DNA of 64,000 nucleotides, from NCBI GenBank assembly GCA_028707065.1, contig JAQTUZ010000003.1, positions 2,501 to 66,500 of the forward strand, read 5' to 3'. Positions 18,982 through 61,939 of the stretch are shown in pieces. Under the pieces are notes generated by a model. It was not told the DNA's origin. It saw only the letters and a list, made by a program, of their open reading frames with translations, and made no database searches. Every line of letters begins with the position of its first letter. Position 1 is the stretch's first letter. Position numbers and translations under genes: made by a program. This DNA comes from Patescibacteria group bacterium. Lineage in GTDB: Bacteria > Patescibacteriota > Patescibacteriia > Patescibacteriales > WJLG01.

Positions 18982-20211
18982 ATGATTAATCAAAAAATTA
19001 AAATATTTCTGGTAATATTATGCATTTTGGGCTTGAGCCTGAATACTTCGGCAGTGGTGCGCAGCATGACTGATGATCAGACGACCAAGGAGATTCAGCA
19101 GCTAAACCTGCGGATCAAGGATAATCAGAATAAAATGCAGGATATCGAGCGCGAGAAGGCGCAATATGCCGCCAATATCGCGGCCGCTCAGGCGCAAGCC
19201 AATACTTTGCAGGGGCAGATGGCGATTTTGGATAATCGCATTGCGGCGGCGGAGCTGGATATTGAGAGCACGCAAAATCAAATCGACCAGACCAATTTGC
19301 GGATGAAGCAGATCAATCTCGATATCAATAACAAACAAGCCTCGATCGAAAAGGAAAAAAATGATATTGCCATTACGATTAAATTAATTTATAAAGAGAA
19401 AGATGTCAGCGTCCTGGAAGCTCTATTGCTGAACAATTCGCTCGCGGATTTTCTTGATCGGATAAAATACTTGGAAGACGTGAATGAAGGAATGTCGGAA
19501 AGCTTGGATAATTTAAAAAATGACGAAGCGGACCTGGAAAAGGGCAAGGCCGAATTAACGCAAAAAAATACCGAATTGCAGACTTTAGCGGTTAGCCTCG
19601 AGCAAAATAAGCAAGCGTTGGAAAGCGACAAGCAGGATAAAGCCGGTGTCTTGGCGGAAACGCAAAATTCTCAGGCCAAATATCAAAGTTTGGTGCGGCA
19701 ATTGAAAGAACAGCAGGACCAGGCAAATACGGAAATCACTAATTTGGAAAAAACTGTCCGGGAAAAGCTTGCCAGCTTAAGCCAAAATAAATTAGAGCTT
19801 AGCCCTAGCGGTTTGATTTGGCCTGTCCCCAAAAATTATATCACCACTTATTTTCACGATCCGGAGTATCCTTTCCGCTATTTGTTCGAGCATCCGGGCG
19901 TGGATGTCCGCGCCGCGCAGGGAACGGAAGTGGTGGCGGCCGATTCGGGCTATGTGGCTCATGCCAAGATGAACGGCACGGCTTATGCCTATGTTATGAT
20001 CATTCACGGCAACGGCCTTTCCACGGTCTATGGCCATGTGGCCAAAATGTTCGTCAAGGAAGATGATTATGTGTCGCAGGGCGAGACGATCGGCTTGAGC
20101 GGCGGCACGCCGGGTACGCTTGGTTCCGGCCCGTTCACGACCGGCCCGCATCTTCATTTTGAAGTCCGCCAGGACGGCGTACCGGTCAATCCGCTCGAAT
20201 ATCTGCCGTAA
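18982..20211 (+). CDS. M23-family metallopeptidase with N-terminal coiled coil (EnvC-like)
   Basis: Signal or TM segment, a long Q/E/K/L-rich coiled coil, then HPGVDVRA...GPHLHFEVRQDGVPVNP (the HxxxD and HxH motifs). Confidence 0.9.
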   Translation: MINQKIKIFLVILCILGLSLNTSAVVRSMTDDQTTKEIQQLNLRIKDNQNKMQDIEREKAQYAANIAAAQAQANTLQGQMAILDNRIAAAELDIESTQNQIDQTNLRMKQINLDINNKQASIEKEKNDIAITIKLIYKEKDVSVLEALLLNNSLADFLDRIKYLEDVNEGMSESLDNLKNDEADLEKGKAELTQKNTELQTLAVSLEQNKQALESDKQDKAGVLAETQNSQAKYQSLVRQLKEQQDQANTEITNLEKTVREKLASLSQNKLELSPSGLIWPVPKNYITTYFHDPEYPFRYLFEHPGVDVRAAQGTEVVAADSGYVAHAKMNGTAYAYVMIIHGNGLSTVYGHVAKMFVKEDDYVSQGETIGLSGGTPGTLGSGPFTTGPHLHFEVRQDGVPVNPLEYLP

Positions 20212-20231
20212 TCAGAAATACGAAATAAAAA

Positions 20232-20260
20232 AACGGTTTACTGATTAAACCGTTTTTTCG
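20232..20260 (+). terminator. Rho-independent terminator
   Basis: A 9-bp aacggttta/taaaccgtt stem with a 5-nt loop, then ttttttcgtttt. Confidence 0.8.
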
Positions 20261-20266
20261 TTTTGT

Positions 20267-20506
20267 CTAAAAAAGATGATGATACCAGTAGGGATCCTTA
20301 ACGATTAATTTTAAAGGCGACAGCTGAATATCTATGGTGCAACAAGAGGAAATAAGAAAAATAATAATCAGAATAATGCCAATACCCAGACAAAGTTCTC
20401 CCCGAATATCCTTTTTCCCGGTATAATGGTTTGGCATCACTGAAAAAAAACCAAACACAAACAAAGGAAATCCGATTATCGCCGTGATAAAAGCTAGCGT
20501 ATTCAT
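20267..20506 (-). CDS. Small membrane protein (79 aa)
   Basis: AAGGAGG lies 4 nt upstream of the ATG on the minus strand. Two hydrophobic helices. Confidence 0.6.
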   Translation of the reverse strand: MNTLAFITAIIGFPLFVFGFFSVMPNHYTGKKDIRGELCLGIGIILIIIFLISSCCTIDIQLSPLKLIVKDPYWYHHLF

Positions 20507-20667
20507 GCCGCCTCCTTTATTAAGGTCTGCTATAAGCTAATATCATACTTCAAAGAACTGACATAATTTAAGCATTTTATTCAAAAAAAATCAATCTCGC
20601 TTGAACCTCGAGAGGGGATTAAGCGTATAAAACAAAGGATGCGTTCGTCGCGCATCCTTTTTCATGT

Positions 20668-20904
20668 TTAAGCATCCGAATGGCTTATTTTTTTTGTGCC
20701 TCGCCTGACTCTGCAGCGGAAAATCTTTACGAGCTCGATTACCAAATGAGACAGATACTGATTGAAGTTATCTGACCACCCATCAAAGATCGCCAGCAGC
20801 AATGTCATTGATACGAAGAGACAAGCAAGAATAATAAATCCGACACAGCGAAACAGATTCTTGATATAGGCGATCATCGCCCTTTTTATTCGCGCAAAAT
20901 TCAT
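20668..20904 (-). CDS. Small membrane protein (78 aa)
   Basis: ORF with one central TM segment (VGFIILACLFVSMTLLLAIF). A hairpin aggatgcg/cgcatcct lies just downstream. Confidence 0.45.
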   Translation of the reverse strand: MNFARIKRAMIAYIKNLFRCVGFIILACLFVSMTLLLAIFDGWSDNFNQYLSHLVIELVKIFRCRVRRGTKKISHSDA

Positions 20905-21034
20905 GGGAAACCCCCAGGGATATGTTAAATGTGCATATTTTGTAGTGTATTATCTTAGCAGATAAAAAACAGGAAGTCAAAGCCAGAATTTTTTTATTTT
21001 TTCAGATCTTTCCCGCCGTGCGACTGGCGGAGAA

Positions 21035-21829
21035 TTAAAATTCTAGATAGCTTTTTTCGTCAGCCGGAAATTCAAAGTGTTTGAATATGCTTGTTATTTT
21101 AATATTATCTGAAAAAATATTGGCGGACAATGATTTTCTCAAGTCATTTATTGAGAAATCATTTTTGGTTATTTCTTTGAGTCTTTTTACAATAATCTGC
21201 GCGGCCCTTTCCGTGATAGGGGAATTAAAATTCTTCTTCCTGCGCTGGTAACTGAAAAAAAGATATTGGTCGCATTTAATATTATTTTTTAAACAAAAAT
21301 TAAATATTGTTTTCAGAAGTTTTTTATTTAATATTATAATTTTACCGCCAATATTTATCCAGTCATTTTTTACGTTACCAAGTTTAATTTTTATAAGTTC
21401 CTTGGTTTTTAAGCCAGTTTCATATAGCATCATTATCAATAAATTATCTCTTTCGGCTGTTACTTTGTCGTTTTTCAAAATAATGCTCGATAAATTGTCT
21501 ATATTTTCCACTCGTTTAAAATTTTTCTTCCCTGCCCTTTCGATTGGTATATTTTTTATTTCTATTGTTACGCCCTTGGTCTCCTTTAAAAAATCGCAAT
21601 ATTTTAAAATAGCATAGATATATGAATTCTTACTTTGCTTTGATTTTCCAGTAGTATATTCGGTAATAAAATTCAAAAAGTTTTTTTCGGGAAAATTAAA
21701 ATAATTAATTTTTTCTCTTGCCAGGTAAGCCAAAAATTTATTTATTGAAATAAAATAATTCGATATAGTATTATGTTTATATCCCTTAGCCTTGAGCCAA
21801 GCAATAAATCCATCTAGTATTATTTTCAT
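21035..21829 (-). CDS. Divergent tyrosine recombinase (XerC/D-like fold, HxxR His replaced by Asn)
   Basis: N-terminal SAM-like core-binding region (FIAWLKAKGYKHNTISNYFISINKFLAYL). AERDNLLIMMLYETGLKTKEL carries the Arg-I block. INDLRKS replaces HxLRH. The tail IFKHFEFPADEKSY aligns by eye with LLGHESLDTTTRY. Very AT-rich. Confidence 0.65.
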   Translation of the reverse strand: MKIILDGFIAWLKAKGYKHNTISNYFISINKFLAYLAREKINYFNFPEKNFLNFITEYTTGKSKQSKNSYIYAILKYCDFLKETKGVTIEIKNIPIERAGKKNFKRVENIDNLSSIILKNDKVTAERDNLLIMMLYETGLKTKELIKIKLGNVKNDWINIGGKIIILNKKLLKTIFNFCLKNNIKCDQYLFFSYQRRKKNFNSPITERAAQIIVKRLKEITKNDFSINDLRKSLSANIFSDNIKITSIFKHFEFPADEKSYLEF

Positions 21830-22305
21830 AAATTAAATTCTAATAAATAATCGTCAGACGGGACAAGCATTATTTTGCAATTTTTTAAGAAAGATAAATT
21901 CAAATAAAGTTTATATAAGTTGGTAGTGCCGACTTCTATAAATACATTCTTATCGGTCCCGAGGTCGGCTCGTCCATAATATAATGCCGGTTCTTTCTCG
22001 ACTTTTATGCCATTGGTTAGAAAATATTTTTCTATGGTCGAGATAAGATCGTTATGCCAATTTCCTCCGTGTTTTTTCAAATTATCAGTATTAAGATTGT
22101 TTTTCGCCTGCCAAATAGAATTATTTAGATAAGAAATTTTTTTTAACTTCATTTTCCCTGAAACAATAAAAATGGCGATTTTTCTCAATAAGCAATATTC
22201 GCATTTTATCGGATCGTTTTGTTCGAAAGGGGATTGGGAAATATTGTTTTTAAGAAATTCAATTTCATCGGAGATCGCTTTTTCCGCTTCATTCCAATCG
22301 ATCAT
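21826..22305 (-). CDS. Hypothetical protein (159 aa) with a PD-(D/E)xK-like core
   Basis: YYGRADLGTDKNVFIEVGTT resembles the G-x-(P)D ... (D/E)-V-K-T strand pair of restriction-endonuclease-like folds, but Gly sits in the Lys position. It overlaps the downstream gene by 4 nt. Confidence 0.5.
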   Translation of the reverse strand: MIDWNEAEKAISDEIEFLKNNISQSPFEQNDPIKCEYCLLRKIAIFIVSGKMKLKKISYLNNSIWQAKNNLNTDNLKKHGGNWHNDLISTIEKYFLTNGIKVEKEPALYYGRADLGTDKNVFIEVGTTNLYKLYLNLSFLKNCKIMLVPSDDYLLEFNL

Positions 22306-22309
22306 AAAA

Positions 22310-23254
22310 TTAATTTTTTAAAGGATGAAATTTTTTTTGAACGCTTTCGGCGTAACGATCAGAGGCATGAACGTAGCGCGTCGTGGTGTCCAATGATTCG
22401 TGGCCCAAAAGAACTTGAATGGCGGCGGGGTTAGCTCCGCATTCAGCTAAATAAGTGGCAAAGCCGTGTCTTAAAGTATGAGCGGAAACAGGAAGATTGA
22501 TTCCCAAAAGCTCGCGATATCTTTTTATTCTTTCCTGAATATAGTTAGCGGAAATTTTAGCGCCCTTAATATTGTTGGCGTTCATTCCTTTGAACGGGAT
22601 GAAGACAAAGGGGGATTGCTTGCCTTTTATTTTCAAGTATTCATCCAAATGCTTCCTGGCTCTAGGCGTCAAATAAACAAATCTTTCTTTTTTTCCCTTG
22701 CCTAAAATAAAAATTCTTCCTTGAGCGTCGATTTTATCCTGCCGCAGATTAACCAACTCGGAAATTCTCATTCCCGTGGCAAACAGTACTTCCATAATAG
22801 CCCTGTTTCTTAAAGCGATTCTTTTATCGGTTTCCAGCTTCATTGGTGATTCTATTAAAGTGATCAGCTCGCTTAATTCCGGTATCTGCGGTTTCTTTTT
22901 TATTGTCTTGCTCATCTTGATCGCGTCCGGCGGCAAAGGAACAGGATAATCCATCTCAATTAGATATTTAAACAAGGAGCGAAGAGAGGATAGCATCCGA
23001 TTAGTAGAGTAGGCCGATAGATTTTTTTCGGTTTTTTGATCGGCCGGAGTCTTTCGATCAATGGAAATCAGATAAGCTTTATAATTCAAAATATCTCTTT
23101 TAGAAATTTTTTTAAATTCTAAATCCTCCTCTTCTAAAAAATTTTTAAAAACGGTCAAATCCCGTTCATAGTTATAAATCGTTTCGGGGGAGTAGCCATT
23201 AACTTTAAGATCAAGGAGAAAATCCTCTATTAATGGAAGTTCTATTGTTTTCAT
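22310..23254 (-). CDS. Tyrosine recombinase, XerC/XerD type (full catalytic set)
   Basis: LRNRAIMEVLFATGMRISEL (Arg), GKGKKERFVYL (Lys), AHTLRHGFATYL (HxxR), LLGHESLDTTTRYVH (His, Tyr). Confidence 0.9.
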   Translation of the reverse strand: MKTIELPLIEDFLLDLKVNGYSPETIYNYERDLTVFKNFLEEEDLEFKKISKRDILNYKAYLISIDRKTPADQKTEKNLSAYSTNRMLSSLRSLFKYLIEMDYPVPLPPDAIKMSKTIKKKPQIPELSELITLIESPMKLETDKRIALRNRAIMEVLFATGMRISELVNLRQDKIDAQGRIFILGKGKKERFVYLTPRARKHLDEYLKIKGKQSPFVFIPFKGMNANNIKGAKISANYIQERIKRYRELLGINLPVSAHTLRHGFATYLAECGANPAAIQVLLGHESLDTTTRYVHASDRYAESVQKKFHPLKN

Positions 23255-23640
23255 ATTATTAGACTGAGTGTAAGGGATATTATACTCAGTACTTTTATAT
23301 TATATAAAAGGGCTGATTCGTCGTCAAGCCCTTGGTTTTTAAAATCTATTTAATGTTTTAGTGTATTCACTATTGGATCCTGATGTTACAATACTACACT
23401 ACCCGTATTTCCGGATAACCATGGGTATCGAAAATATTTATTTTTTTATTATAATTTAACAATATTATATTTTGTCTTTTTAGTTCTAATTTTAGGCTAT
23501 GTTGTTAATAGCGATTCATGTATATTTTGTTAATATTAGCCATAAAATAGATACTTAGGCCCTAAAAGGCCCTATAGCGCTTGAGAACTGATTTTCAGTA
23601 TTCCACCTCATCTTTTAAGATAAATTTTATAGTCAGGCGC

Positions 23641-23829
23641 TTAATTGGTCATCATTACTCCTAAAATATGGATAGCTGGAACGAAATTCAGTAAAAATTT
23701 GATAACCAAGAGAAAGATGCCGACAACTAAGATTAAAGCAACTAAGATGGCCAGAAAGAAAACGAATTTAAATATTCTTTCCGATGATTCATTGCTCATA
23801 AAAAAATAATGCTTGGTGATTTTGAACAA
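23641..23829 (-). CDS. Possible small membrane protein (62 aa)
   Basis: ORF with one long hydrophobic helix. No SD and no clear promoter. Confidence 0.3.
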   Translation of the reverse strand: MFKITKHYFFMSNESSERIFKFVFFLAILVALILVVGIFLLVIKFLLNFVPAIHILGVMMTN

Positions 23830-23940
23830 CTTATCGATTTGGACCTGTTATCAGGTTTTTAAACCCGACGATCACGACCCAAATCTGCCTGCCTGCCGGC
23901 CGGCAGGCGAATTGTATCACAATCTCCAAATATATTATAG

Positions 23941-24798
23941 TTATTGATAATAAATTTTGTCGCCAAAGCGCAAGTCGATCATTTTTTGCTTGGCAAAATC
24001 ATCTTTCAATTTTTGATCTTTTAAAATCAATAAATTGTTCAGTTGCTTACCGACATCGTCTTTGGTGTTGAAAATTATTTTTAAACCCTCAGGCGTCAGC
24101 AATTTTATCGTGTCCAGATCATCGTCGACGATAAAATGATCGATACTGATCCCCGGCATTTGTTTGGCGAATTTATCGTAAAGCGAGGCGGTAAAATTAA
24201 GGTAGCTCGGGTCAACCGCGATTCGGTTGCCGTACATTCGTTGCGTTGATTGATTGACGATCAAGGGATATTTATTGTCTTTTAGGTCCAGAGGGCTGAT
24301 CTCTTGCACCGCGTAGCCGTCAGTATCGGCATAATAATATTTATCCCCTTCTCGCCAGATACAGGCCAAAGGCTTATTGACAATATCGATTGAGAGCGAA
24401 TCCGGCCATTCTTTTTCAACATCGATCTTTTGAAAGTGATATTTTTTTTGCAAGGTGGCCTCGAATTTATTTTTACTGAAGAAAAGCAGATTGCTTTGCG
24501 GAAACAGCAGAAAATGATTGGCGCGCATTTGCTCGCTGATCAAGCCGCGCACATCGGCATCGGACATTTGATCGACGCCGGAGATGGAAATTTTTTTGAT
24601 CCCCCAGAAATGCGAAATAAAAACGAACCAAATAATGAAAATCAAAACCAGGACGATGAAACCGATAATTAACTTGCCTTTGACGCCGGCAAATGACATT
24701 ATCCTTTCCCGCCTTCTATAAAAAGGATTTTCCAGCTTTTTTTCGTGGTAGTCGATCGGCAGATGCCTTCTGGCTGGATAATTGCCGAATAGAGACAT
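23941..24798 (-). CDS. ftsQ: Cell division protein FtsQ-type (POTRA domain)
   Basis: Cytoplasmic tail, a single TM segment (LIIGFIVLVLIFIIWFVFI), then IKKISISGVDQMSDADV, a POTRA-like start. Confidence 0.75.
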   Translation of the reverse strand: MSLFGNYPARRHLPIDYHEKKLENPFYRRRERIMSFAGVKGKLIIGFIVLVLIFIIWFVFISHFWGIKKISISGVDQMSDADVRGLISEQMRANHFLLFPQSNLLFFSKNKFEATLQKKYHFQKIDVEKEWPDSLSIDIVNKPLACIWREGDKYYYADTDGYAVQEISPLDLKDNKYPLIVNQSTQRMYGNRIAVDPSYLNFTASLYDKFAKQMPGISIDHFIVDDDLDTIKLLTPEGLKIIFNTKDDVGKQLNNLLILKDQKLKDDFAKQKMIDLRFGDKIYYQ

Positions 24799-53919: not shown

Positions 53920-54261
53920 TCAAAGTGTTTCCGGAATGCTAAATTTCTCCGCGTTGACTTCGACCCAATCGCTATCGCTCTCTTCCCATTTATAAACTTT
54001 GAGGCGAGAACTCTTTTCCGTCGGACTATAAAGATACTCCACTCCCGTATCTGACCCGCCGCGGTGGGAATAAATGGTTTTTTTATCCAAAACAATCGGT
54101 TTTTCCACAAATTCCAGCCTGGTTTTCCCTAGCGGGCTCTCGAATTCCACAAAATCAACATCAACGCCGCCTTCTTCCTCAAAATGCTCCTGGCCCTTAT
54201 CGATTATCTCAAACGCATCCAGGACTTTTCCCTTGATCGCTTCCCATTTTTCGCGGGTCAT
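53920..54261 (-). CDS. Hypothetical cytoplasmic protein (113 aa)
   Basis: ORF. The ATG at 54261 is preferred because the upstream in-frame codons lie in a word repeat. Confidence 0.55.
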   Translation of the reverse strand: MTREKWEAIKGKVLDAFEIIDKGQEHFEEEGGVDVDFVEFESPLGKTRLEFVEKPIVLDKKTIYSHRGGSDTGVEYLYSPTEKSSRLKVYKWEESDSDWVEVNAEKFSIPETL

Positions 54262-54300
54262 ATATTCACGTAGCACATAGCACGCAACACATAACAAGCG
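54262..54300. repeat. cacataac word repeat (left arm of an inverted pair)
   Basis: cacgtagcacatagcacgcaacacataaca. The reverse complement of 54484-54517 is gcacatagcataaagcacgtaacacataacac. Confidence 0.7.
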
Positions 54301-54480
54301 CGCAAAAGCTGCTTTTTATAAAAAAATTATCTCAATGCAATTATACCATTTTTTTAATAAAAATCAATTAAGCCGCGGCCTCATGCCAGGTAATCAACTG
54401 CAATGTTAATTTTATAAAATTATCGCAAAATAAGGTATTTTATATTTTCTGTCTCTTTCTAAATCCGGTAAATTTTATAT

Positions 54481-55416
54481 TTATGTGTTATGTGTTACGT
54501 GCTTTATGCTATGTGCAGAAAATTCGCAGCCGCAATATTTCTGCCGATAAAATCTAAATTTTCGGGAAAGCAATAATGAGCGCTGCCAGCCGTTATTTTC
54601 CTTAAAATCCTGATCCAGAAATTTTTGGCCGGTTATTTCGGCAATGGCTAAGCCGGCTTTATTGACGAGGTAAGAATTTTTATGCGGGCTGACCGTCAAG
54701 GTCGTAGCGTAATAAGGAATATTTTGCCGGCTGGCAAGTTGCGCCGCCTCCCGCAAGCGATGGGCAAAACACAATTCGCATCTCGATCCGCCTTCGGGTT
54801 GATCTTCACGGCCTTTGATCGCCGCCAGCCAATCTTGATGATCGTAATTTCCGATCCGTAATTTTATCCCGAAATTCCTGGCCAATTTTTTAACTTCGGC
54901 CAGGCGTTTTCGATATTCTCTTTCCGGGTGGATGTTGGGATTAAAAAAATATAATTCCAATTTAAAGCCTGACGACAAGATTTCCGCCACCGCCGAGGCG
55001 CAAGGCGCGCAACAGACGTGCAAAAGAAGTTTTTGCCGCGGCGAATGATGGATCATATAGGCGATGGGAATGGCGAGCGAAGCTCCGACCACGCCGGCCA
55101 AAAAATCCAGATAAGAAGGGATTCTGCCGGGTATATAAGCTTGCACGAATTCACCAAGAACATTGATCAAGGCAACGAAAACAAAAGAAAAAAAGGCGAC
55201 CTGGCGGAAAGTAAATTTATCCCAGGCAATGACCGCCGCCATAACCAAATAAGCCATCACCCCGAAAAAGACCAAGTGAGCCGCTTTGTCATAAAAAGTG
55301 ACGCGGGAAAAATCGGTCGGCAGATAGATCAGCGGATACCAAAGCAATGACAAAACAGCGGCCAGCCAACAAAGCAAAACAAAAATCAATAAATATTTTT
55401 TCATCGATAAAGTCAA
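54481..55416 (-). CDS. queH: Fusion of a VanZ-like membrane domain with epoxyqueuosine reductase QueH (DUF208)
   Basis: The N-terminal ~130 aa have four TM helices with FYDKAAHLVFFG (VanZ-like). The C-terminal part has LLLHVCCAPCA...YFFNPNIHP...CELCF...YCGCEFS (QueH Cys motifs). Confidence 0.8.
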   Translation of the reverse strand: MTLSMKKYLLIFVLLCWLAAVLSLLWYPLIYLPTDFSRVTFYDKAAHLVFFGVMAYLVMAAVIAWDKFTFRQVAFFSFVFVALINVLGEFVQAYIPGRIPSYLDFLAGVVGASLAIPIAYMIHHSPRQKLLLHVCCAPCASAVAEILSSGFKLELYFFNPNIHPEREYRKRLAEVKKLARNFGIKLRIGNYDHQDWLAAIKGREDQPEGGSRCELCFAHRLREAAQLASRQNIPYYATTLTVSPHKNSYLVNKAGLAIAEITGQKFLDQDFKENNGWQRSLLLSRKFRFYRQKYCGCEFSAHSIKHVTHNT

Positions 55417-56450
55417 TTATTTTTTTTAAATTTCGACTTTTCCACCCAAGCAAAGCCCATGATCAGACAAACCATGATCGCGAACAGGACTCCGACCGCC
55501 AATAATTTACCCAGGCTTTGCAAAAAAAGCGCGCCCAAACCGAATAACAGGGAAAAACAATAAAAGATCAAAACCGTTTGGCGCTGTCCGATTCCCAAAT
55601 CAAGCAGCCGATAATGCAGATGCGCCCGATCAGCCGTCTTGAAAGGATTTTTGCCGGTAGCGAGGCGGCGGATGATCGTCCAGACAAAATCCAAAAGCGG
55701 CAAACCTAAAACCAAAAGGGCGATAGCGATTTTTCCTCCGGAAATAATGGCTAATACTCCCAAAATATAGCCAATGAGCAGAGAGCCTCCTTCGCCTAAA
55801 AAAATCCTGGCCGGATACCAGTTAAAAACCAGAAAACCAAGACAGGCGGCGGCAAAGACAAGCGCCGCAAAAGCGATATCCGGCTGAAAATATTTAGTCG
55901 TGATGGTAAAAAGAAAAATGATCAAACCGCCGATGCCGCCAAGTCCGGTCACTAAACCATCCACGCCGTCCAAAAGTTTGGTGGCGTACATCATCGCCAA
56001 TAACCAAATAACCGTGAACAAGACGGAAGCGATCCCGCTGAAATATAAAAAACCGCCCAGCGGATTAGTGATTTTACCGATACCGATCTGGCCGAGAAGA
56101 ACGCAGGCGATCGCCAAGATCGGCCAAATAATTTGCTTGCTCGGTTTTAAATTATATTTATCATCAAGAAATCCGCCGATCATCAAGCAACAAGCGCCGC
56201 CAAAAAACCACCACCAATGCCGATAGGTCAGGATGCCCAAGACCAGCCGATCGTGAAATAAAAATAAGATTAAAAAAAATGCCGCAAAGACCGCCAGACC
56301 GCCAAGCAATGGGATTGGTTTCTCGTGAAATTTTCTTTGCCCATCAGGCCGGTCGATGACTCTTAATTTAATGGCTAACCTAACGGCTATAATGGTAAAA
56401 ATCAAAGAAAAAACAAAGGCGAATACGGCGGGAATAAGGTAAGGCACCAT
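55413..56450 (-). CDS. Polyprenyl-phosphate N-acetylhexosamine-1-phosphate transferase (MraY/WecA family)
   Basis: GFLDDKYNLKP, NLLDGVDGL-type block (TKLLDGVDGLVTG) and about 10 TM helices. Confidence 0.85.
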   Translation of the reverse strand: MVPYLIPAVFAFVFSLIFTIIAVRLAIKLRVIDRPDGQRKFHEKPIPLLGGLAVFAAFFLILFLFHDRLVLGILTYRHWWWFFGGACCLMIGGFLDDKYNLKPSKQIIWPILAIACVLLGQIGIGKITNPLGGFLYFSGIASVLFTVIWLLAMMYATKLLDGVDGLVTGLGGIGGLIIFLFTITTKYFQPDIAFAALVFAAACLGFLVFNWYPARIFLGEGGSLLIGYILGVLAIISGGKIAIALLVLGLPLLDFVWTIIRRLATGKNPFKTADRAHLHYRLLDLGIGQRQTVLIFYCFSLLFGLGALFLQSLGKLLAVGVLFAIMVCLIMGFAWVEKSKFKKNN

Positions 56451-56477
56451 TGACTTTGGTTAAAATATATTTATAAT
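56450..56477 (+). promoter_or_regulatory. Promoter TTGACT-16-TATAAT
   Basis: TTGACT at 56450-56455, a 16-nt spacer, then TATAAT at 56472-56477. Confidence 0.55.
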
Positions 56478-56530
56478 TTAAATACAGGGGGTTCTTTCGC
56501 AAACCGTTTACCGTCAGAAGGAGGTGAATT

Positions 56531-56761
56531 ATGAACAGTCAAAAGATCAAATCGATCAGGTCAGGCAGACGGTATCGAAGCGCTCTGATTTTTTCTTCAG
56601 GTCCGCCGGAGCGGAAAAATCATCGGCCGGCTTTGGATGTTTATGCTAAAGTTGCCGAGGAAATCGCCGCTCAAGAAGGCAACAAAAATGTGTTGTCCGA
56701 ACAAGCCCAAAGATTTTTGCGAATTTTGCAAAAAAATCTTTTGGGCGGCTTGCGCACTTAA
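56531..56761 (+). CDS. Small basic hypothetical protein (76 aa)
   Basis: GAAGGAGGTG lies 5 nt upstream of the ATG. The gene has its own promoter and terminator. Confidence 0.6.
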   Translation: MNSQKIKSIRSGRRYRSALIFSSGPPERKNHRPALDVYAKVAEEIAAQEGNKNVLSEQAQRFLRILQKNLLGGLRT

Positions 56762-56793
56762 CCTGGAGGAACAATGACCAGAGCAACAATCTT

Positions 56794-56848
56794 AGGACGC
56801 GACTCTTTTTTAATAATTTTAAAAAAGATGCGCGTCCTTTGTCTTTTT
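56794..56848. terminator. Bidirectional terminator
   Basis: aggacgcg (56794-56801) pairs with cgcgtcct (56831-56838), followed by ttgtcttttt. Confidence 0.6.
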
Positions 56849-56860
56849 ATGACAGAAACA

Positions 56861-59608
56861 TCATAACACTCTGCCCTTGATGATCTCAATATCGGCGTTG
56901 TCGTTGATCACCACCGTATCTCTTCTTTGCAATTCATTGCCCAGGATCTTTTTGGCAATATTGTCTTCGATCTTATCTTGGATCAAGCGGCGCAAGGGAC
57001 GGGCGCCGAATTTAGGATCAAAGCCCAGATGAGCCAGCGTCAATAATCCGCCATCGCTTATTTCCAATCCCATTCCCTTGCTTTTCAGCATTTCGGCCAC
57101 ATCCGAGAGCATTAAACGGGCGATAGCGACGATATCATCTTCGGAGAGCGGCTTAAAGACGATAATGCCGTCGAAACGATTGATCAATTCCGGCCGCATC
57201 ACTTGGCTTAACTGCTCGTTGATCAAAGAATTTTTGATATTCTCAAGCGGCGCGCCTTTATTCATTTCATCTTGGATGAATTGCGAACCGGCATTGGAAG
57301 TGGCGATGATAATGCTGCTGGTGAAATCGATGGTTTGGCCTTGGCCATCGGTCAGGCGCCCGTCGTCCATCACCTGCAAGAACAGATTGAAAATTTTGGG
57401 ATTGGCTTTCTCGAATTCATCCAGCAAAATAAGCGAAAACGGTTTTTGCCTGACCGCTTCGGTCAGATAACCCTTAGTACCGTCGGTATCGCCGATCATT
57501 TTCTTGATGCTCGCCTCTTCCTGATATTCGCTCATATCCAATCTGACCAGCAGATCTTTTTTATGAAAATAAACCCGGGCGATAGTTTTCGCCAATTCGG
57601 TTTTTCCCACGCCGGTCGGCCCCATAAAAAGAAAACTGGCGATCGGCCGCTTGCCTTCGCGCATTTCCGTGCGGGCGCGGCGCAAGCTATTAGCCACCAT
57701 ATCGACTGCTTCCTTCTGGTCGATCATATATTTATGGATCTCTTCTTCCAAATTCAATAATTTCGCGCTTTCCTCGCCGCCCAGATCCTGCACGGGAATT
57801 TCCGTGAGCTGATTAATGGTCAGGGCAATATCGTTCTTGTCGCAAATATATTTTTTTCCCTTATGTTCGCCGGCGACTCTGACGGCGGTTTTTTCCAAAA
57901 TTTGAATCGCCTTTTCCGGCAAAGATATTTCATGGATATATTTTCCGGCCAGCTCGACAGCCGCTTCGATCGCGTTGTAGGAAAAGAAAATATTATTGCG
58001 CGCTTCCAAATAGCCGATCTTGCTCTCCAGAATCTGGATCGCCTGATCGTTATCCGGCTCGGCAATTTTCAAGCGGGTCATCACCCGGCCGATCGCCGCT
58101 CTTTCCACGAACTGGACATAATTTTGGTCGTCAGCCGTGGCCAAACAGCGGATAAAGCCTTTTTCCAATTGCGTCGCCAGCACTTCGGAAAGTTCCAAAC
58201 TGCCTTCGGCTCCGGCGGTGATGCCGATCAAATTTTCCAAATTATCGATAAAAAGAATAATGTTGCCGGCGCGATTTATTTCGTCGATGATCGCCAACAA
58301 GCGGGCTTCGGCATCCGCGGCCGTGGCTCCCGAAACCAACCGGGCGATATCCAGTTCGATCAACCGCTTATCGCGCATAAACTCCGGTACTTTTTCTTCA
58401 GTAACCATTTCCCGGGCAATGCCCTCGATGATCGTCTTTTTTCCCACCCCTTTCGGGCCAGTCAGTAAAACGCCATTTGATCCGGTTTTGAAAGCATCAA
58501 AAACCGCGGCGATTTCTTTGGCTCTGGCCACGCAAAGCTGCAATCTTCCCCATTTGGCGGCTAAAGTAAGGTCGTAGCCGTAATTATTCAAGATTGGAGT
58601 TGCTACGGCGGTATACGCCCGATCCATCACTGTTTTAGGCTTGAAAACCGCCAATTTCCGGTATAATTTATAATTAGCCACTTGCTGTTCGTTGATGCGA
58701 AACCAGGCAATGGCATTTTTAATTTTATTGGTATCGATTTTTAAATCCAAGAGAATTTCCTCGAGAGTCGGACTACTGGCAACACAAGGTAAGAGCAAAT
58801 TCAGCACCGTGGTGTTGTCTTCCTTGAATTCATAAGCCTCGACAAAACCTTGCATGAGAATTTCCTTAACTTCGTTAGAGATCACCAGATCCGCTTCCTT
58901 TTTAAGCGTTTGAGGCAGCGTTTTGAGCTGGCTGCTCAATCTTTTCACTAAATCATGCCCGCTGACATTAAGACGGCTCATCAGGATAGATATTTTTACG
59001 GAACCCAGCATGGCATAAAATAAATGCAACGAAGTAAGTTCCGGATTTTTTAATCTCAGGGCTACTTGATAAGCATCCTCGATGATCGCCAATGTTTTAT
59101 CGCGAAAGGTCAGGGAAACGTCCAGCCGTTTTTTATAATGGCGCAATTCATTCCAATTGTTGGGATAAATTTTTAACTCAACTAATTTAAATTCTTTGAT
59201 CCGGGCTTCGTCATCGCGTGCTTTATCGGCCCGATAGATCAGAAACATCAGCCCCAGGAACCCGATCCAAAAAAATAAAATAAAAATATTTTTTTCCCGC
59301 CAGAAATATAATATTTTATTGACCAGATCAGCCTGCTGATTCTGCCAAACCCAAAAAACGAGCGAACCTAAGCCGCCGATAAACAAGAGCAGGGCCATTA
59401 GATCCAGCAATAAATCCAGAAAACGCCGGACTTGGCGCAAAAAAATCATCGCGCGGTTGATCCGCAACCCCCAATATAAAAAATTGCCCTGATAAAAAAG
59501 GCCTTCGCCTAAGCCGGCGCAATTAGGGCAAGAAAAATTCTTGTCATTAACGCCCGATCCTTGGCAAGTGGGGCAAGTAATAAAAGATATGTTATTATTT
59601 TCCGCCAT
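56861..59608 (-). CDS. Clp/Hsp100-type double AAA+ ATPase with N-terminal DnaJ-type zinc finger and TM segments
   Basis: CPTCQGSG and CPNCAGLG (CxxCxGxG twice), two to three TM helices, Clp-N-like repeats, a D1 P-loop GPKGVGKKT with Walker B LFIDNL, and D2 GPTGVGKTELAK with LLDEFEKA. Confidence 0.85.
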   Translation of the reverse strand: MAENNNISFITCPTCQGSGVNDKNFSCPNCAGLGEGLFYQGNFLYWGLRINRAMIFLRQVRRFLDLLLDLMALLLFIGGLGSLVFWVWQNQQADLVNKILYFWREKNIFILFFWIGFLGLMFLIYRADKARDDEARIKEFKLVELKIYPNNWNELRHYKKRLDVSLTFRDKTLAIIEDAYQVALRLKNPELTSLHLFYAMLGSVKISILMSRLNVSGHDLVKRLSSQLKTLPQTLKKEADLVISNEVKEILMQGFVEAYEFKEDNTTVLNLLLPCVASSPTLEEILLDLKIDTNKIKNAIAWFRINEQQVANYKLYRKLAVFKPKTVMDRAYTAVATPILNNYGYDLTLAAKWGRLQLCVARAKEIAAVFDAFKTGSNGVLLTGPKGVGKKTIIEGIAREMVTEEKVPEFMRDKRLIELDIARLVSGATAADAEARLLAIIDEINRAGNIILFIDNLENLIGITAGAEGSLELSEVLATQLEKGFIRCLATADDQNYVQFVERAAIGRVMTRLKIAEPDNDQAIQILESKIGYLEARNNIFFSYNAIEAAVELAGKYIHEISLPEKAIQILEKTAVRVAGEHKGKKYICDKNDIALTINQLTEIPVQDLGGEESAKLLNLEEEIHKYMIDQKEAVDMVANSLRRARTEMREGKRPIASFLFMGPTGVGKTELAKTIARVYFHKKDLLVRLDMSEYQEEASIKKMIGDTDGTKGYLTEAVRQKPFSLILLDEFEKANPKIFNLFLQVMDDGRLTDGQGQTIDFTSSIIIATSNAGSQFIQDEMNKGAPLENIKNSLINEQLSQVMRPELINRFDGIIVFKPLSEDDIVAIARLMLSDVAEMLKSKGMGLEISDGGLLTLAHLGFDPKFGARPLRRLIQDKIEDNIAKKILGNELQRRDTVVINDNADIEIIKGRVL

Positions 59609-59633
59609 ATATTAAAAATATTCGGTTTGCCGA

Positions 59634-60539
59634 TCAATTTACTAAATTAATCGGTTTCTTTTTGATCCAAGCTTCCACGTTGTCGATCATGATATCATTA
59701 GCCGTCCGGCAGGTCATATCGGTATGGAAAGCGATGTGCGGAGTTACGATAATCTTTGGCGATTGCCGGAGTTTTGAATAAATATCATTTTTCGTGTTAA
59801 AGATTCCTACTCCTGCCGGGTCAATAGCCGCGCCTTTCAGCCGGCCAGAGTCAATTGCTCCAATCAAAGCGTCAACATTATAGATATCGGTGTCGGTAAT
59901 ACTGACAAAGAAAGCACCTTCTTTCAGAGATTCAAAAAACTTTTTATCCAGCAAATTCTTTGTCTCCGGATTATTCGCCAAACAATTAACCACGAAATCA
60001 GCTTGCTTGATCAAATTGATAAGATCGCCGCCCCTCTTGAAATACGAAACTTCCATGTCAAATACTTCGCAGATTTTTCCGACTCTGATGCCGACATTAC
60101 CCTTGCCCAAGATAACAACTTTTTTTCCGGCCAAGCCAGGCATGTGTTCCAATACATCTTTTTCGCCAACTTCCTCAATATTGATATATTTCAAAAGTTT
60201 GCGCGAAAGAATAATCATCATTCCGACAATCCACTCGGCAACCGCCGATTTATTGCAGCCTGGCGCGTTTGCCACTTTAACATTATTATGTGCCAATTTT
60301 TTCAAATCAAGCCAACCGACGCCGACAAAAGGCAGTGAAATAAATTTATTCTTCAAATCATAGATAATGTCCGCAATCGGCACGCTCTCGGCGCAAATAA
60401 TATCGGCTTCAGATAATTTTCTTAAGCGTTCTTCCTTTGATCTTCCTTCTCCTTGCAAAAAATCAATTTCTCCGAGAGACTTTAACCTGCCTATCTGATC
60501 TTCGGCTAATTTCAAATTATCAGTAATGACAATCTTCAT
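59634..60539 (-). CDS. D-isomer-specific 2-hydroxyacid dehydrogenase family protein
   Basis: NAD-binding VVILGKGNVGIRVG and catalytic-His region VTPHIAFHT. The ATG at 60539 (MKIVITDN) avoids overlap with the upstream gene. Confidence 0.8.
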   Translation of the reverse strand: MKIVITDNLKLAEDQIGRLKSLGEIDFLQGEGRSKEERLRKLSEADIICAESVPIADIIYDLKNKFISLPFVGVGWLDLKKLAHNNVKVANAPGCNKSAVAEWIVGMMIILSRKLLKYINIEEVGEKDVLEHMPGLAGKKVVILGKGNVGIRVGKICEVFDMEVSYFKRGGDLINLIKQADFVVNCLANNPETKNLLDKKFFESLKEGAFFVSITDTDIYNVDALIGAIDSGRLKGAAIDPAGVGIFNTKNDIYSKLRQSPKIIVTPHIAFHTDMTCRTANDIMIDNVEAWIKKKPINLVN

Positions 60540-60556
60540 ATCAAATAAAATTATTC

Positions 60557-60931
60557 CTATTTCGCCGTAATCTGCCACACGATCATATAAATTATCAAAA
60601 TCGGCGCCAAGAACCAGATCCAAAAAACGATCAGGGCGATGATGATCCAGAAAATCAAAATTACGCTGCGGAAAATAATTTGGGCCAGCCGGATAAAAAA
60701 ACTGATGATCGCGCCCTGGATATCGCGCTGGCCATACATCGGCACGAAGATGTTTTTTATCCAGACTAGCAATGCCAGCGATTTTTCTTTATCAGCGACG
60801 AAATTCGCCAAATTTTTGATAATCTTAAAAAGACCAAGGGAATACCACCAGAACGGAAAGAAAAAAATATCCATCAGAATACTAAAAAAAATGCCGCCTA
60901 AAGTTAAATTTGAGCTTTTTGAAGAAATCAT
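60557..60931 (-). CDS. Small membrane protein (124 aa)
   Basis: ORF with three to four hydrophobic helices. Confidence 0.55.
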   Translation of the reverse strand: MISSKSSNLTLGGIFFSILMDIFFFPFWWYSLGLFKIIKNLANFVADKEKSLALLVWIKNIFVPMYGQRDIQGAIISFFIRLAQIIFRSVILIFWIIIALIVFWIWFLAPILIIYMIVWQITAK

Positions 60932-60939
60932 TTTTGTAT

Positions 60940-61010
60940 CATGTATAATGTATTATGTATAATGTGCCAGATACAAGATCCTTAATACATTATACATAAT
61001 ACTTAATACT
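60940..61010. repeat. tacataat word hairpin
   Basis: gtattatgtataatgt pairs with acattatacataatac (16 bp). Confidence 0.7.
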
Positions 61011-61080
61011 ATTATACCATTTTTACCCAAATAAAAAAGCCCCCGATAATTGTCATGGGAGCTTATCCGCAAAAGAAATC

Positions 61081-61431
61081 TTAGTCGTTTAAAGACAGGT
61101 TTGAAAACGGGCTGAACCGGATAAACTCAGCTATCCGTTGGTTGAAATCACTGCCCGGGATTAAATGGTCAACGATCTCTTTCCCGGCTAACGGCAGAAA
61201 GAACCGATATCTGGCCCGCGGGAGATAGATGTAACAAAAAAAAGTGCCTATCTCGAGTATTGGCCGACGGTTTTCCAGGGCGTCGCTATCACCGGTATAG
61301 ATAAAAAATTCGCCAAGATACATAACCGGATACCAGCAATCGAGGTCATTCCTTAACCGCTCCAGAACGATCTCAAGAACGGCGTGCCTGTTTCTTAAAT
61401 ACCGGAAAAACCGGCAAATTGTTTTAATCAT
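61081..61431 (-). CDS. Hypothetical protein (116 aa)
   Basis: AAGGAGG lies 5 nt upstream of the ATG at 61431 on the minus strand. No family recognised. Confidence 0.55.
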   Translation of the reverse strand: MIKTICRFFRYLRNRHAVLEIVLERLRNDLDCWYPVMYLGEFFIYTGDSDALENRRPILEIGTFFCYIYLPRARYRFFLPLAGKEIVDHLIPGSDFNQRIAEFIRFSPFSNLSLND

Positions 61432-61459
61432 CACAACCTCCTTATCTTAGGCTAAATGG

Positions 61460-61939
61460 CTAAATCAAGAAAATAAGTTCATAATAAATTGTTTGTAAAT
61501 GAGCAACGCTGCCTCGCTTATATTCTTTGAAACCATATTTCTCATAAAGCCGCCTGGCAGCCGCTTGATTAGTGTTAGTGTCAAGAATGATTTTTTCATA
61601 GCCCAATTCGCGAGCCCGATCAATCAAACGATCCAGGATTGTGGAACCGATTCCTTGCCTTTGATATTTTAGGTCAACTCGCATCCGTTTGATTTCCGCC
61701 GTCTGCTCATTAATTTTTCTTAAAGCGCCCATGCCAATTATTTCATCATTGAGCATTGCCATTAAAAATTCGCCCCGGTTATTCAAATAAATTTCTTTGA
61801 TGTTGGAAAAATCCTGATTATACTTCGGGTCATCAAGAAAACTTTCGGTTTGTTTCAAGCCCTCGACATGCAAACGTAAAACAGTATCTTGATCCGAAGT
61901 CCGATATCGTCTTAGTTTTATTTTGCTCATGTTTTTCAA
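61460..61939 (-). CDS. GNAT-family N-acetyltransferase
   Basis: RMRVDLKYQRQGIGSTILDRLIDRARELGYEKIILDT is GNAT motif A (Q/R-x-x-G-x-G/A). Confidence 0.88.
   Translation of the reverse strand: MKNMSKIKLRRYRTSDQDTVLRLHVEGLKQTESFLDDPKYNQDFSNIKEIYLNNRGEFLMAMLNDEIIGMGALRKINEQTAEIKRMRVDLKYQRQGIGSTILDRLIDRARELGYEKIILDTNTNQAAARRLYEKYGFKEYKRGSVAHLQTIYYELIFLI

Follow-up and report, generated by a model that had tools for sequence, protein, structure and literature searches.

A predicted membrane-anchored Hsp100 protein of Patescibacteria with a degenerate first ATPase ring and a probable small membrane partner

Hsp100 proteins are textbook soluble threading motors. Here we describe a divergent member of this family encoded on the minus strand of a 64-kb stretch of contig JAQTUZ010000003.1 (assembly GCA_028707065.1) from a Patescibacteria genome; this whole stretch is referred to below as the window. 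The product, which we call the anchored Clp, combines a putative N-terminal zinc (Zn) knuckle, a predicted transmembrane (TM) hairpin, a probable Clp N-domain and two AAA+ modules, D1 and D2, of which D1 is degenerate. An earlier note, made from the sequence of the window, had described it as a membrane-tethered unfoldase with a DnaJ-type zinc finger and one hydrolytic ring; our analysis retains much of this description and revises several parts of it. The gene and its features are as follows:

56861..59608, minus strand: anchored Clp gene (zinc finger, TM hairpin and Clp body), 915 amino acids (aa), with Zn knuckle, TM hairpin, Clp N-domain, degenerate D1 and active D2
59507..59575, minus strand: putative Zn knuckle, residues 12-34, CPTCQGSG-x7-CPNCAGLG, four Cys invariant; short beta elements at 8-45 in the model
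59345..59422, minus strand: predicted TM helix 1, residues ~63-88, Kyte-Doolittle maximum 2.31; AlphaFold helix 52-89
59291..59344, minus strand: predicted external loop, residues 89-106, short, with an FW motif (F102, W103) conserved in at least 90%
59237..59290, minus strand: predicted TM helix 2, residues ~107-124, Kyte-Doolittle maximum 2.24; AlphaFold helix 108-134
58646..59119, minus strand: probable Clp N-domain, residues ~164-321, all-helical in the model, predicted local distance difference test score (pLDDT) 85-93
57866..58591, minus strand: D1 AAA+ module, residues ~340-581, nucleotide binding in principle, hydrolysis and threading residues gone
58433..58459, minus strand: D1 P-loop GPKGVGKKT, residues 384-392
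58241..58258, minus strand: D1 Walker B ILFIDN, residues 451-456, with the catalytic Glu replaced by Asn
56879..57850, minus strand: D2 AAA+ module and C-terminal small domain, residues ~587-910, complete catalytic site
57467..57493, minus strand: D2 pore loop GDTDGTKGY, residues 706-714, shortened and non-aromatic

The open reading frame (ORF) starts with an ATG, 25 nt from the stop of the preceding gene. An identical protein has been deposited in NCBI from a Patescibacteria metagenome-assembled genome (MAG; P0001), and more than 120 clusters match the anchored Clp at 50–84% identity over ~100% of its length, the named ones belonging to Patescibacteria, Parcubacteria or Falkowbacteria. In more than 100 of these homologues the N-terminus can be aligned over its full length, and a profile of the N-terminal module (knuckle and hairpin) retrieved at least 334 representative clusters at 50% identity. 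The start codon therefore does not lie downstream of the Cys motifs, a point on which the earlier note had made its description depend. No clear Shine-Dalgarno sequence precedes the ATG, which might suggest that the extension is an artefact of a wrong start or of a gene fusion created by assembly or sequencing error. We consider the probability of this to be negligible, given that the extension is collinear, with invariant Cys, in more than 100 independent assemblies, that it recurs in the 334 N-terminal clusters and that the upstream gene ends before the ATG.

Motif statistics for the family were obtained from 116 full-length Patescibacteria homologues, to which all counts over 116 refer; the motif pattern recurred in 48 additional members, as distant as 37% identity, for which the canonical paralogues encoded alongside them served as internal control. 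The Pfam domains recognised in the anchored Clp are AAA (residues 380-483), AAA_lid_9 (520-590), AAA_2 (654-813, E 2e-51) and ClpB_D2-small (821-901, E 4e-22); Clp_N reaches 13–15 bits in the query against a cutoff of 20.7 and is recorded for nearly all homologues. The AlphaFold model (pLDDT 82) consists of short beta elements (8-45), two long helices (52-89 and 108-134), a helical N-domain (164-321), D1 up to residue 581 and D2 from residue 587. Its body matches the protomers of ClpC, ClpC1 and ClpB in fold, with a target TM-score of ~0.85 and a root-mean-square deviation of ~4 Å, and the best sequence matches are B. subtilis ClpC (E 4e-119, the best PDB match) and E. coli ClpB (E 3e-118). 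The two-ring, ClpC/ClpB-like body proposed in the earlier note is thus borne out by both the Pfam domains and the fold match. The NCBIfam Clp equivalogs all remain far under their cutoffs: ClpB TIGR03346 scores 527 bits against 1232, in two stretches, and ClpA TIGR02639 scores 444 against 993, covering residues 174-901 in a single stretch. By fold and domains, the anchored Clp is a true two-ring member of the Hsp100 superfamily, set apart from ClpA, ClpB, ClpC and ClpE. As it fails the defining features of these four proteins, we regard it as an uncharacterised variant of the family. Its task is probably unlike that of any Clp protein studied so far. No membrane-anchored Hsp100 of such architecture was found described in the literature searched, the coverage of which was incomplete, so that this is absence of evidence only; the remark in the earlier note that the architecture is unlike that of characterised Clp/Hsp100 proteins stands to this extent.

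The N-terminal Cys motifs reported earlier, CPTCQGSG and CPNCAGLG, are present at residues 12-19 and 27-34. All four Cys are invariant (116/116), and the Gly positions of the CxxCxGxG pattern are 93–98% conserved. Taken in isolation, the N-terminus matched the Pfam models DnaJ_CXXCXGXG and Anti-TRAP with E ~4e-4 and ~21 bits against cutoffs of 32–33. With the query itself, the DnaJ model (PF00684) gave 16.6–21 bits against a cutoff of 32.7, over profile positions 1-25 of 65, and the Anti-TRAP model (PF15777) gave 17–21 bits against a cutoff of 32, with fitting repeat count and spacing. Among 38 members, matches with E<0.01 were obtained for the DnaJ model in 19 and for the Anti-TRAP model in 14, all of them under the Pfam gathering cutoffs. 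The best PDB relatives of the family N-terminal profile were Anti-TRAP (3lcz, E 2e-4; 2bx9, E 1e-3), followed by the Cys-rich domain of E. coli DnaJ (1exk, E 6e-3). The knuckle can accordingly be assigned, on these similarities, to the DnaJ/Anti-TRAP CxxCxGxG type; with two repeats and one putative metal site it would correspond to half of a DnaJ unit and has the same repeat count as Anti-TRAP. The DnaJ-type zinc finger of the earlier note is therefore upheld as regards the motif type and the invariant Cys, but the element comprises only two repeats, scores under the Pfam cutoffs and is closest to Anti-TRAP. To judge from its four invariant Cys and its likeness to Zn-binding motifs, the Cys4 knuckle may bind zinc, and a role in substrate binding, as the earlier note proposed, may be considered.

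A subclade of 879–892 aa proteins has lost both CxxC pairs (L034 8592-11255, L038 10352-13024, L039, L040, L041, L042, L049 and L051). In its members the TM hairpin and FQGRFLYW, the aromatic hairpin, are kept, and the partner gene described below still lies upstream. This suggests that the knuckle is an accessory and does not form the core of the system.

Two hydrophobic TM segments were found in 108 of the 116 homologues. The membrane anchor noticed earlier is hence retained, but the third of its "two to three" TM helices is rejected. The number of lysine and arginine residues is 4.5 before TM helix 1, 2.2 in the loop and 5.9 after TM helix 2. Since the loop is poor in these residues compared with its basic flanks, we predict, from hydropathy and charge pattern, an N-in/C-in hairpin; a topology prediction was among the checks suggested in the earlier note. 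With such a charge pattern, both the knuckle and the AAA+ body would be cytoplasmic and joined via an external loop of ~18 residues. In this arrangement the side of the protein formed by the N-domain and D1 would be kept close to the membrane, on its inner face.

The first AAA+ module is degenerate in the whole family. The Lys of its Walker A motif is kept (116/116), and the following Mg-binding position, canonically Thr or Ser, is occupied by Lys (38), Asn (32) or Arg (30) and never by Thr in the 116 homologues, although some distant members have a normal GKT. The position of the catalytic Glu in Walker B holds Asn in 99 and Asp in 15 homologues and never Glu, and the preceding Asp position varies between Glu, Asp, Asn, Lys and Gln. 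Val, Ala or Ile replaces the Arg finger (ALERRFQ in ClpC), with no Arg in 116 sequences. The pore loop reads SGATAADAE, with SGA[TS][PA][AS]xAE as the family pattern, in contrast to the canonical KYRGEFE, and contains no aromatic residue. The same degeneration is seen in members at 37–48% identity. These data support the conclusion that D1 is, as predicted from its motifs, unable to hydrolyse ATP by the normal mechanism throughout the family. By analogy with type-II AAA+ proteins that have one inactive ring, D1 may serve as a nucleotide-binding, non-hydrolysing assembly ring.

The catalytic apparatus of D2 is complete. Walker A (GPTGVGKT, residues 663-670), Walker B (LILLDEFEKA, residues 726-735) with its DE pair, the sensor-1 Asn, the Arg finger R811 and the sensor-2 motif GARPLRR are invariant in 116/116. 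All the ATPase motifs quoted in the earlier note, including the D1 P-loop and the D1 Walker B with Asn, are present, and its view of a degenerate first site with a single hydrolytic ring is supported by the absence of the Walker B Glu and the Arg finger from D1 in 116/116 and the invariance of the D2 motifs.

As to the pore loop, D2 departs from the canonical state that the earlier note had assigned to it. The ClpC segment GSPPGYVGY-DEGGQ aligns to GDTDGTKGY with a deletion of 5 residues (posterior probability 0.7–0.9), and the position of the pore-loop Tyr is taken by Thr (41), Ala (22), Val (17), Ser (10), Ile (8) or Asn (6), with no aromatic residue in 116 homologues. In the AlphaFold model the loop is an 8-residue turn (706-713), followed by a helix that starts at Y714. 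Y714 thus comes right behind the shortened loop and is conserved in 112/116; in the Magasanikbacteria branch, where the stretch reads GQPGKKGTG[ILV], it is replaced by Ile, Leu or Val. Neither ring thus carries the aromatic pore-loop residue of threading Hsp100s. Together with the reduced length and the variable sequence of the D2 loop, this makes the name "unfoldase" doubtful; the tethering and the single hydrolytic ring are the parts of the earlier note's "membrane-tethered unfoldase" that stand. For the same reasons we prefer, tentatively and as a reading that falls just short of probable, a function in which ATP is used to clamp or remodel a membrane complex rather than to thread polypeptides processively.

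The main, though somewhat unlikely, alternative is that the anchored Clp is a membrane-tethered unfoldase or dislocase after all, a hexamer which, powered by D2 alone, pulls membrane or membrane-proximal proteins through the channel from the N/D1 side and the knuckle and N-domain bind the clients, similar to FtsH or Msp1 without a protease. The entry face of the ring, formed by the N-domain and D1, is the tethered face, the Clp N-domain is probably kept, D2 is fully catalytic, and Y714 stands beside the shortened loop in nearly all homologues. A precedent is offered by ClpE, the Cys4 N-domain of which is reported to target misfolded substrates and to be combined with an aliphatic D1 pore loop (PMC13125188); ClpE D2, however, keeps its Tyr. 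The probability of this alternative is lowered by the variable, never aromatic D2 Tyr position in a loop shorter by 5 residues, by the aliphatic residues at Y714 in the Magasanikbacteria branch and by the Ser-Gly-Ala-rich D1 loop. Furthermore, variants without D2 (see below) keep the N-terminal module and a neighbouring glycosyltransferase gene, so a part of the function needs no motor.

The elements that couple Hsp100 proteins to other machines were also sought, as the earlier note had suggested checking for a ClpP-binding loop and a ClpB-type middle domain (M-domain), and both turned out to be missing. The ClpP-docking tripeptide [LIVM]G[FLM] was found in the D2 loop after sensor-1 in none of the 116 homologues. 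The linker between the rings, from LPxKAI to the D2 Walker A, comprises 97–104 residues, compared with ~221 in the canonical paralogue from the same genomes, and neither a coiled coil nor a helical insertion is seen between residues 581 and 587 of the AlphaFold model, so that no M-domain was found between the rings; the unbroken alignment of the ClpA model agrees with this.

This paralogue is a second, divergently transcribed Hsp100 gene present in 9 related loci, on the minus strand in locus coordinates:

L007 2721-5444, L009 2602-5250, L034 5226-7880, L036 2151-4820, L038 7217-9844, and also L039, L041, L049 and L051: canonical Hsp100 paralogue

It possesses the motifs GE[AP]GTGKT, KFRGEFE, ILFIDELH, ALERRFQ and GY[VI]G and an IGF loop, with ~400 residues between its two Walker A motifs, which is the length found in ClpB, and ~221 from LPDKAI to the D2 P-loop. 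The presence of a fully canonical Hsp100 in the same genomes indicates that the anchored Clp is a specialised extra copy rather than a general disaggregase or ClpP partner. As an observation in its own right, the paralogue pairs a long M-domain with an IGF ClpP loop, a natural "BAP-like" combination. Neither ClpP nor a second Clp gene was found in the 64-kb window; the ClpP query was approximate and confined to the window, which makes this a weak negative.

In databases the family bears the name "ATP-dependent Clp protease ATP-binding subunit ClpC/ClpA". Taken literally, the name implies an ordinary ClpC/ClpA-type subunit that delivers substrates to ClpP and is merely anchored, and the best PDB match to B. 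subtilis ClpC could be cited in its favour. This is very improbable: the ClpP tripeptide is absent throughout whereas the canonical paralogue has IGF, the NCBIfam equivalogs are far under cutoff, and the dead D1, the non-aromatic pore loops and the lack of an M-domain all disagree with it. The annotation as a Clp protease ATP-binding subunit is misleading for the anchored family.

The anchored Clp shares with ClpC and ClpB AAA_lid_9, AAA_2, ClpB_D2-small, identical D2 catalytic motifs and probably the Clp N-domain, but it lacks the M-domain (linker ~99 residues), the VGF/IGF loop, the D1 Glu, the Arg finger and the D1 pore Tyr, its D2 pore loop is short and non-aromatic, and it adds a Zn knuckle, a TM hairpin and a dedicated small partner gene. 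It resembles ClpA in the order N-D1-D2 without a middle domain; however, it has neither the IGL loop nor the pore tyrosines, D1 is dead, the anchor and the knuckle are additional, and the sequence is nearer to ClpC/ClpB. FtsH, Msp1 and Bcs1 are hexameric or heptameric AAA+ machines anchored by N-terminal TM segments. FtsH has an M41 peptidase and an aromatic pore loop, and Msp1 has aromatic pore loops. The likeness of the anchored Clp to them, as to Torsin, lies in the working principle and not in homology beyond the AAA+ fold. In a direct test for FtsH, no peptidase domain was found in the anchored Clp with Pfam and NCBIfam, and its two AAA modules are of the Hsp100 type.

ClpE, likewise a two-ring Hsp100, has a Zn centre of four Cys at its N-terminus and a non-aromatic D1 pore loop (I194; PMC13125188). 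Unlike the anchored Clp, ClpE is soluble and has no Clp_N; both of its rings are active, its D2 pore loop is aromatic (Y526), and an M-domain as well as a VGF ClpP motif are present. The spacing of its Cys residues (C3, C6, C29, C32) is not presented in the text consulted as the CxxCxGxG repeat type. In contrast to DnaJ and Anti-TRAP, the knuckle of the anchored Clp is fused to a TM hairpin, and no J-domain or other DnaJ part accompanies it. Torsin offers a precedent for the reading preferred here: it is related to Hsp100 D2, associated with membranes, devoid of aromatic pore loops and dependent on the transmembrane cofactors LAP1/LULL1 (PMC5425593). It nevertheless differs in having one AAA+ module, no Arg finger of its own and a luminal location, whereas the anchored Clp has an invariant Arg finger and a dead D1 ring.

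Three genes near the anchored Clp are as follows:

60557..60931, minus strand: membrane partner gene, 124 aa, with FPFWWY and PMYGQRDxQG motifs, Pfam-less
59634..60539, minus strand: D-2-hydroxyacid dehydrogenase gene (Pfam 2-Hacid_dh, NCBIfam), between the partner and Clp genes in this genome only
55413..56450, minus strand: WecA-like family-4 glycosyltransferase (GT4) gene, Pfam Glycos_transf_4, E 3.5e-30

The partner protein of the window, with the invariant motifs FPxWWY and PMYGQRDxQG, has no Pfam or NCBIfam match. Its family consists of 207 clusters, all labelled hypothetical. A scan of species-representative genomes with the partner yielded 59 loci from Falkowbacteria, Magasanikbacteria, Buchananbacteria and unclassified Patescibacteria, and in 56 of these 59 species-level loci the anchored Clp directly follows the partner in the same orientation. 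Among the three exceptions, two end at a contig border; the third, L029, has 2,288 nt downstream and yet no Clp ORF. The spacing between the two genes has a median of 8 nt and does not exceed 30 nt in 42 of the 56 pairs, 4 of which overlap. Seen from the Clp side, the partner was found directly upstream in 6 of 6 sampled members (hidden Markov model E 1e-48 to 1e-53). In the window the dehydrogenase gene separates the two, but this insertion is absent from L005 and L006, which have 83–84% Clp identity, and occurs in 0/59 loci; the dehydrogenase is outside the conserved module. A scan between the dehydrogenase and Clp genes gave no clear terminator or promoter.

In the AlphaFold prediction (pLDDT 91) the partner is a helical hairpin, both arms of which (11-52 and 71-122) are very long, and a Foldseek search of the PDB returned no structural analogue (best E 3.4). 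The outer halves of the protein are hydrophobic, and its central segment carries on average 8.3 Lys and Arg residues, compared with almost none in the tails. From this distribution we infer that the tails are outside and that a basic stalk, tipped by the invariant motif, protrudes on the cytoplasmic side.

In all 43 hits, the GT4 gene lies downstream of the anchored Clp and in the same orientation, 3 nt to 4.1 kb away. Of the 34 loci that span 15 kb or more, 33 contain it; other neighbours recur far less regularly in these 34 loci, namely QueH (18), PDZ (11), PGK (10), DUF5656 (10) and GltX (6). The GT4 of the window scores higher against WecA (118 bits) than against MraY (61), both under cutoff. 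Rfam and tRNA searches of the window at 54000-61500, which includes the operon and the recurrent gap of ~450–560 nt between Clp and GT4, found nothing. In the window this gap is 410 nt long and contains an antisense ORF of 76 aa (56531-56761, plus strand) with 62% identity over 39 aa, in L005 only. The antisense ORFs of the gap were rejected as a conserved partner, since other lineages carry unrelated small ORFs there.

Other features of the surroundings can be noted separately. At 54481-55416 (minus strand) the window encodes a VanZ-like membrane domain fused to the epoxyqueuosine reductase QueH. L003 has this fusion as well, whereas L069 carries VanZ and QueH as two adjacent genes, and QueH is alone in L001 and L002. 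The GC content is 0.35 at 20001-24000 and 0.42–0.48 elsewhere in the window. Many third-party annotation (TPA) MAG records that carry this Patescibacteria operon are titled "uncultured Gammaproteobacteria bacterium", a label that is almost certainly wrong (L007, L009, L012, L022, L025-L027, L029, L036, L039, L043, L044, L049-L053, L061 and L062).

A recurrent class of shorter proteins of ~583–631 aa (among them P0126, P0127, P0130 and P0136 with 583–607 aa; loci L064-L066) consists of the knuckle, the hairpin, the N-domain and a degenerate D1, without D2; P0127 has in addition lost the Walker A Lys. The D2-less gene lies 183 nt upstream of a Glycos_transf_4 gene. A split gene was rejected as an explanation, because no D2 ORF follows before the GT4 begins at that distance. 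No partner gene was found beside the D2-less genes, the contigs of which are short.

These variants bring in another possibility, namely that the protein is largely a pseudo-enzyme with a scaffolding or regulatory role. A complex of envelope biosynthesis, built for instance around the WecA-like transferase, would then be organised or regulated by the knuckle, the hairpin, the N-domain and the dead D1, with D2 acting only as a nucleotide-dependent switch for assembly and disassembly. The D2-less class of ~600 aa directly upstream of Glycos_transf_4, with its one loss of the Walker A Lys, and the unbroken GT4 linkage would both fit this. On the other hand, the D2 catalytic residues are invariant over the 116 full-length homologues, which argues for selected ATP turnover; the partner was not found beside the D2-less genes on their short contigs, and the GT4 link may be inherited synteny. 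Altogether we regard the scaffold as decidedly unlikely.

Under the reading that we prefer, clamping or remodelling of a membrane complex, six subunits would assemble via the nucleotide-binding D1 ring, and D2 would be the only motor, acting as a ring or spiral. The latter expectation follows from the Arg finger, which is useful only in an oligomer. The N-domain/D1 face of the hexamer would be pinned to the membrane, beside six Zn knuckles and the stalks of the partner. The latter would be a stoichiometric membrane partner, probably co-translated, the PMYGQRDxQG tip and basic stalk of which may reach the Zn-knuckle, the N-domain or the D1 region. The complex would constitute a membrane-bound remodelling machine independent of ClpP and DnaK, and, much as in Torsin or Bcs1, its ATP cycle could serve to clamp or release a partner or client embedded in the membrane, or to change its shape. 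The GT4 linkage suggests that the likeliest client belongs to an envelope glycoconjugate pathway starting with the WecA-like enzyme.

Several points weigh against this preferred reading. In ClpE, threading goes together with a non-aromatic residue (I194) in the D1 pore loop (PMC13125188), and the conserved Tyr or aliphatic residue after the D2 loop could be a re-registered paddle. The orientation of the N-domain and the entry face toward the membrane would be as expected for a membrane-protein extractase. The topology itself is derived from hydropathy and the positive-inside rule. Finally, the gene order could reflect slow rearrangement within one lineage, not function, as GltX, QueH, PGK and PDZ are also partly syntenic.

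A bolder proposal, which we consider unlikely in its full extent, is that the two genes together encode a membrane machine which descends from Hsp100 but has given up threading polypeptides. The one live ATPase ring, assembled on the dead one, would perform conformational work on a membrane complex. It could control or assemble the first, WecA-like step of envelope glycopolymer synthesis, or else pass cargo that is folded, or is not protein, through a polar channel that has become wider. If this is true, bacteria would have their own counterpart to the Torsin-cofactor or Bcs1 principle, and Patescibacteria an envelope system particular to their lineage.

The sequences of this family are public, but they have been misnamed ClpC/ClpA, and the partner family has no name at all. 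In the anchored Clp the Hsp100 fold has been kept, nearly all motor-defining features have been altered together and a dedicated partner has been added, while the canonical copy in the same genomes provides a natural control for what an Hsp100 ring does without paddles. For Patescibacteria, the cell-surface biology of which is central to their lifestyle and poorly understood, the module suggests a role in the membrane or envelope that is particular to this lineage.

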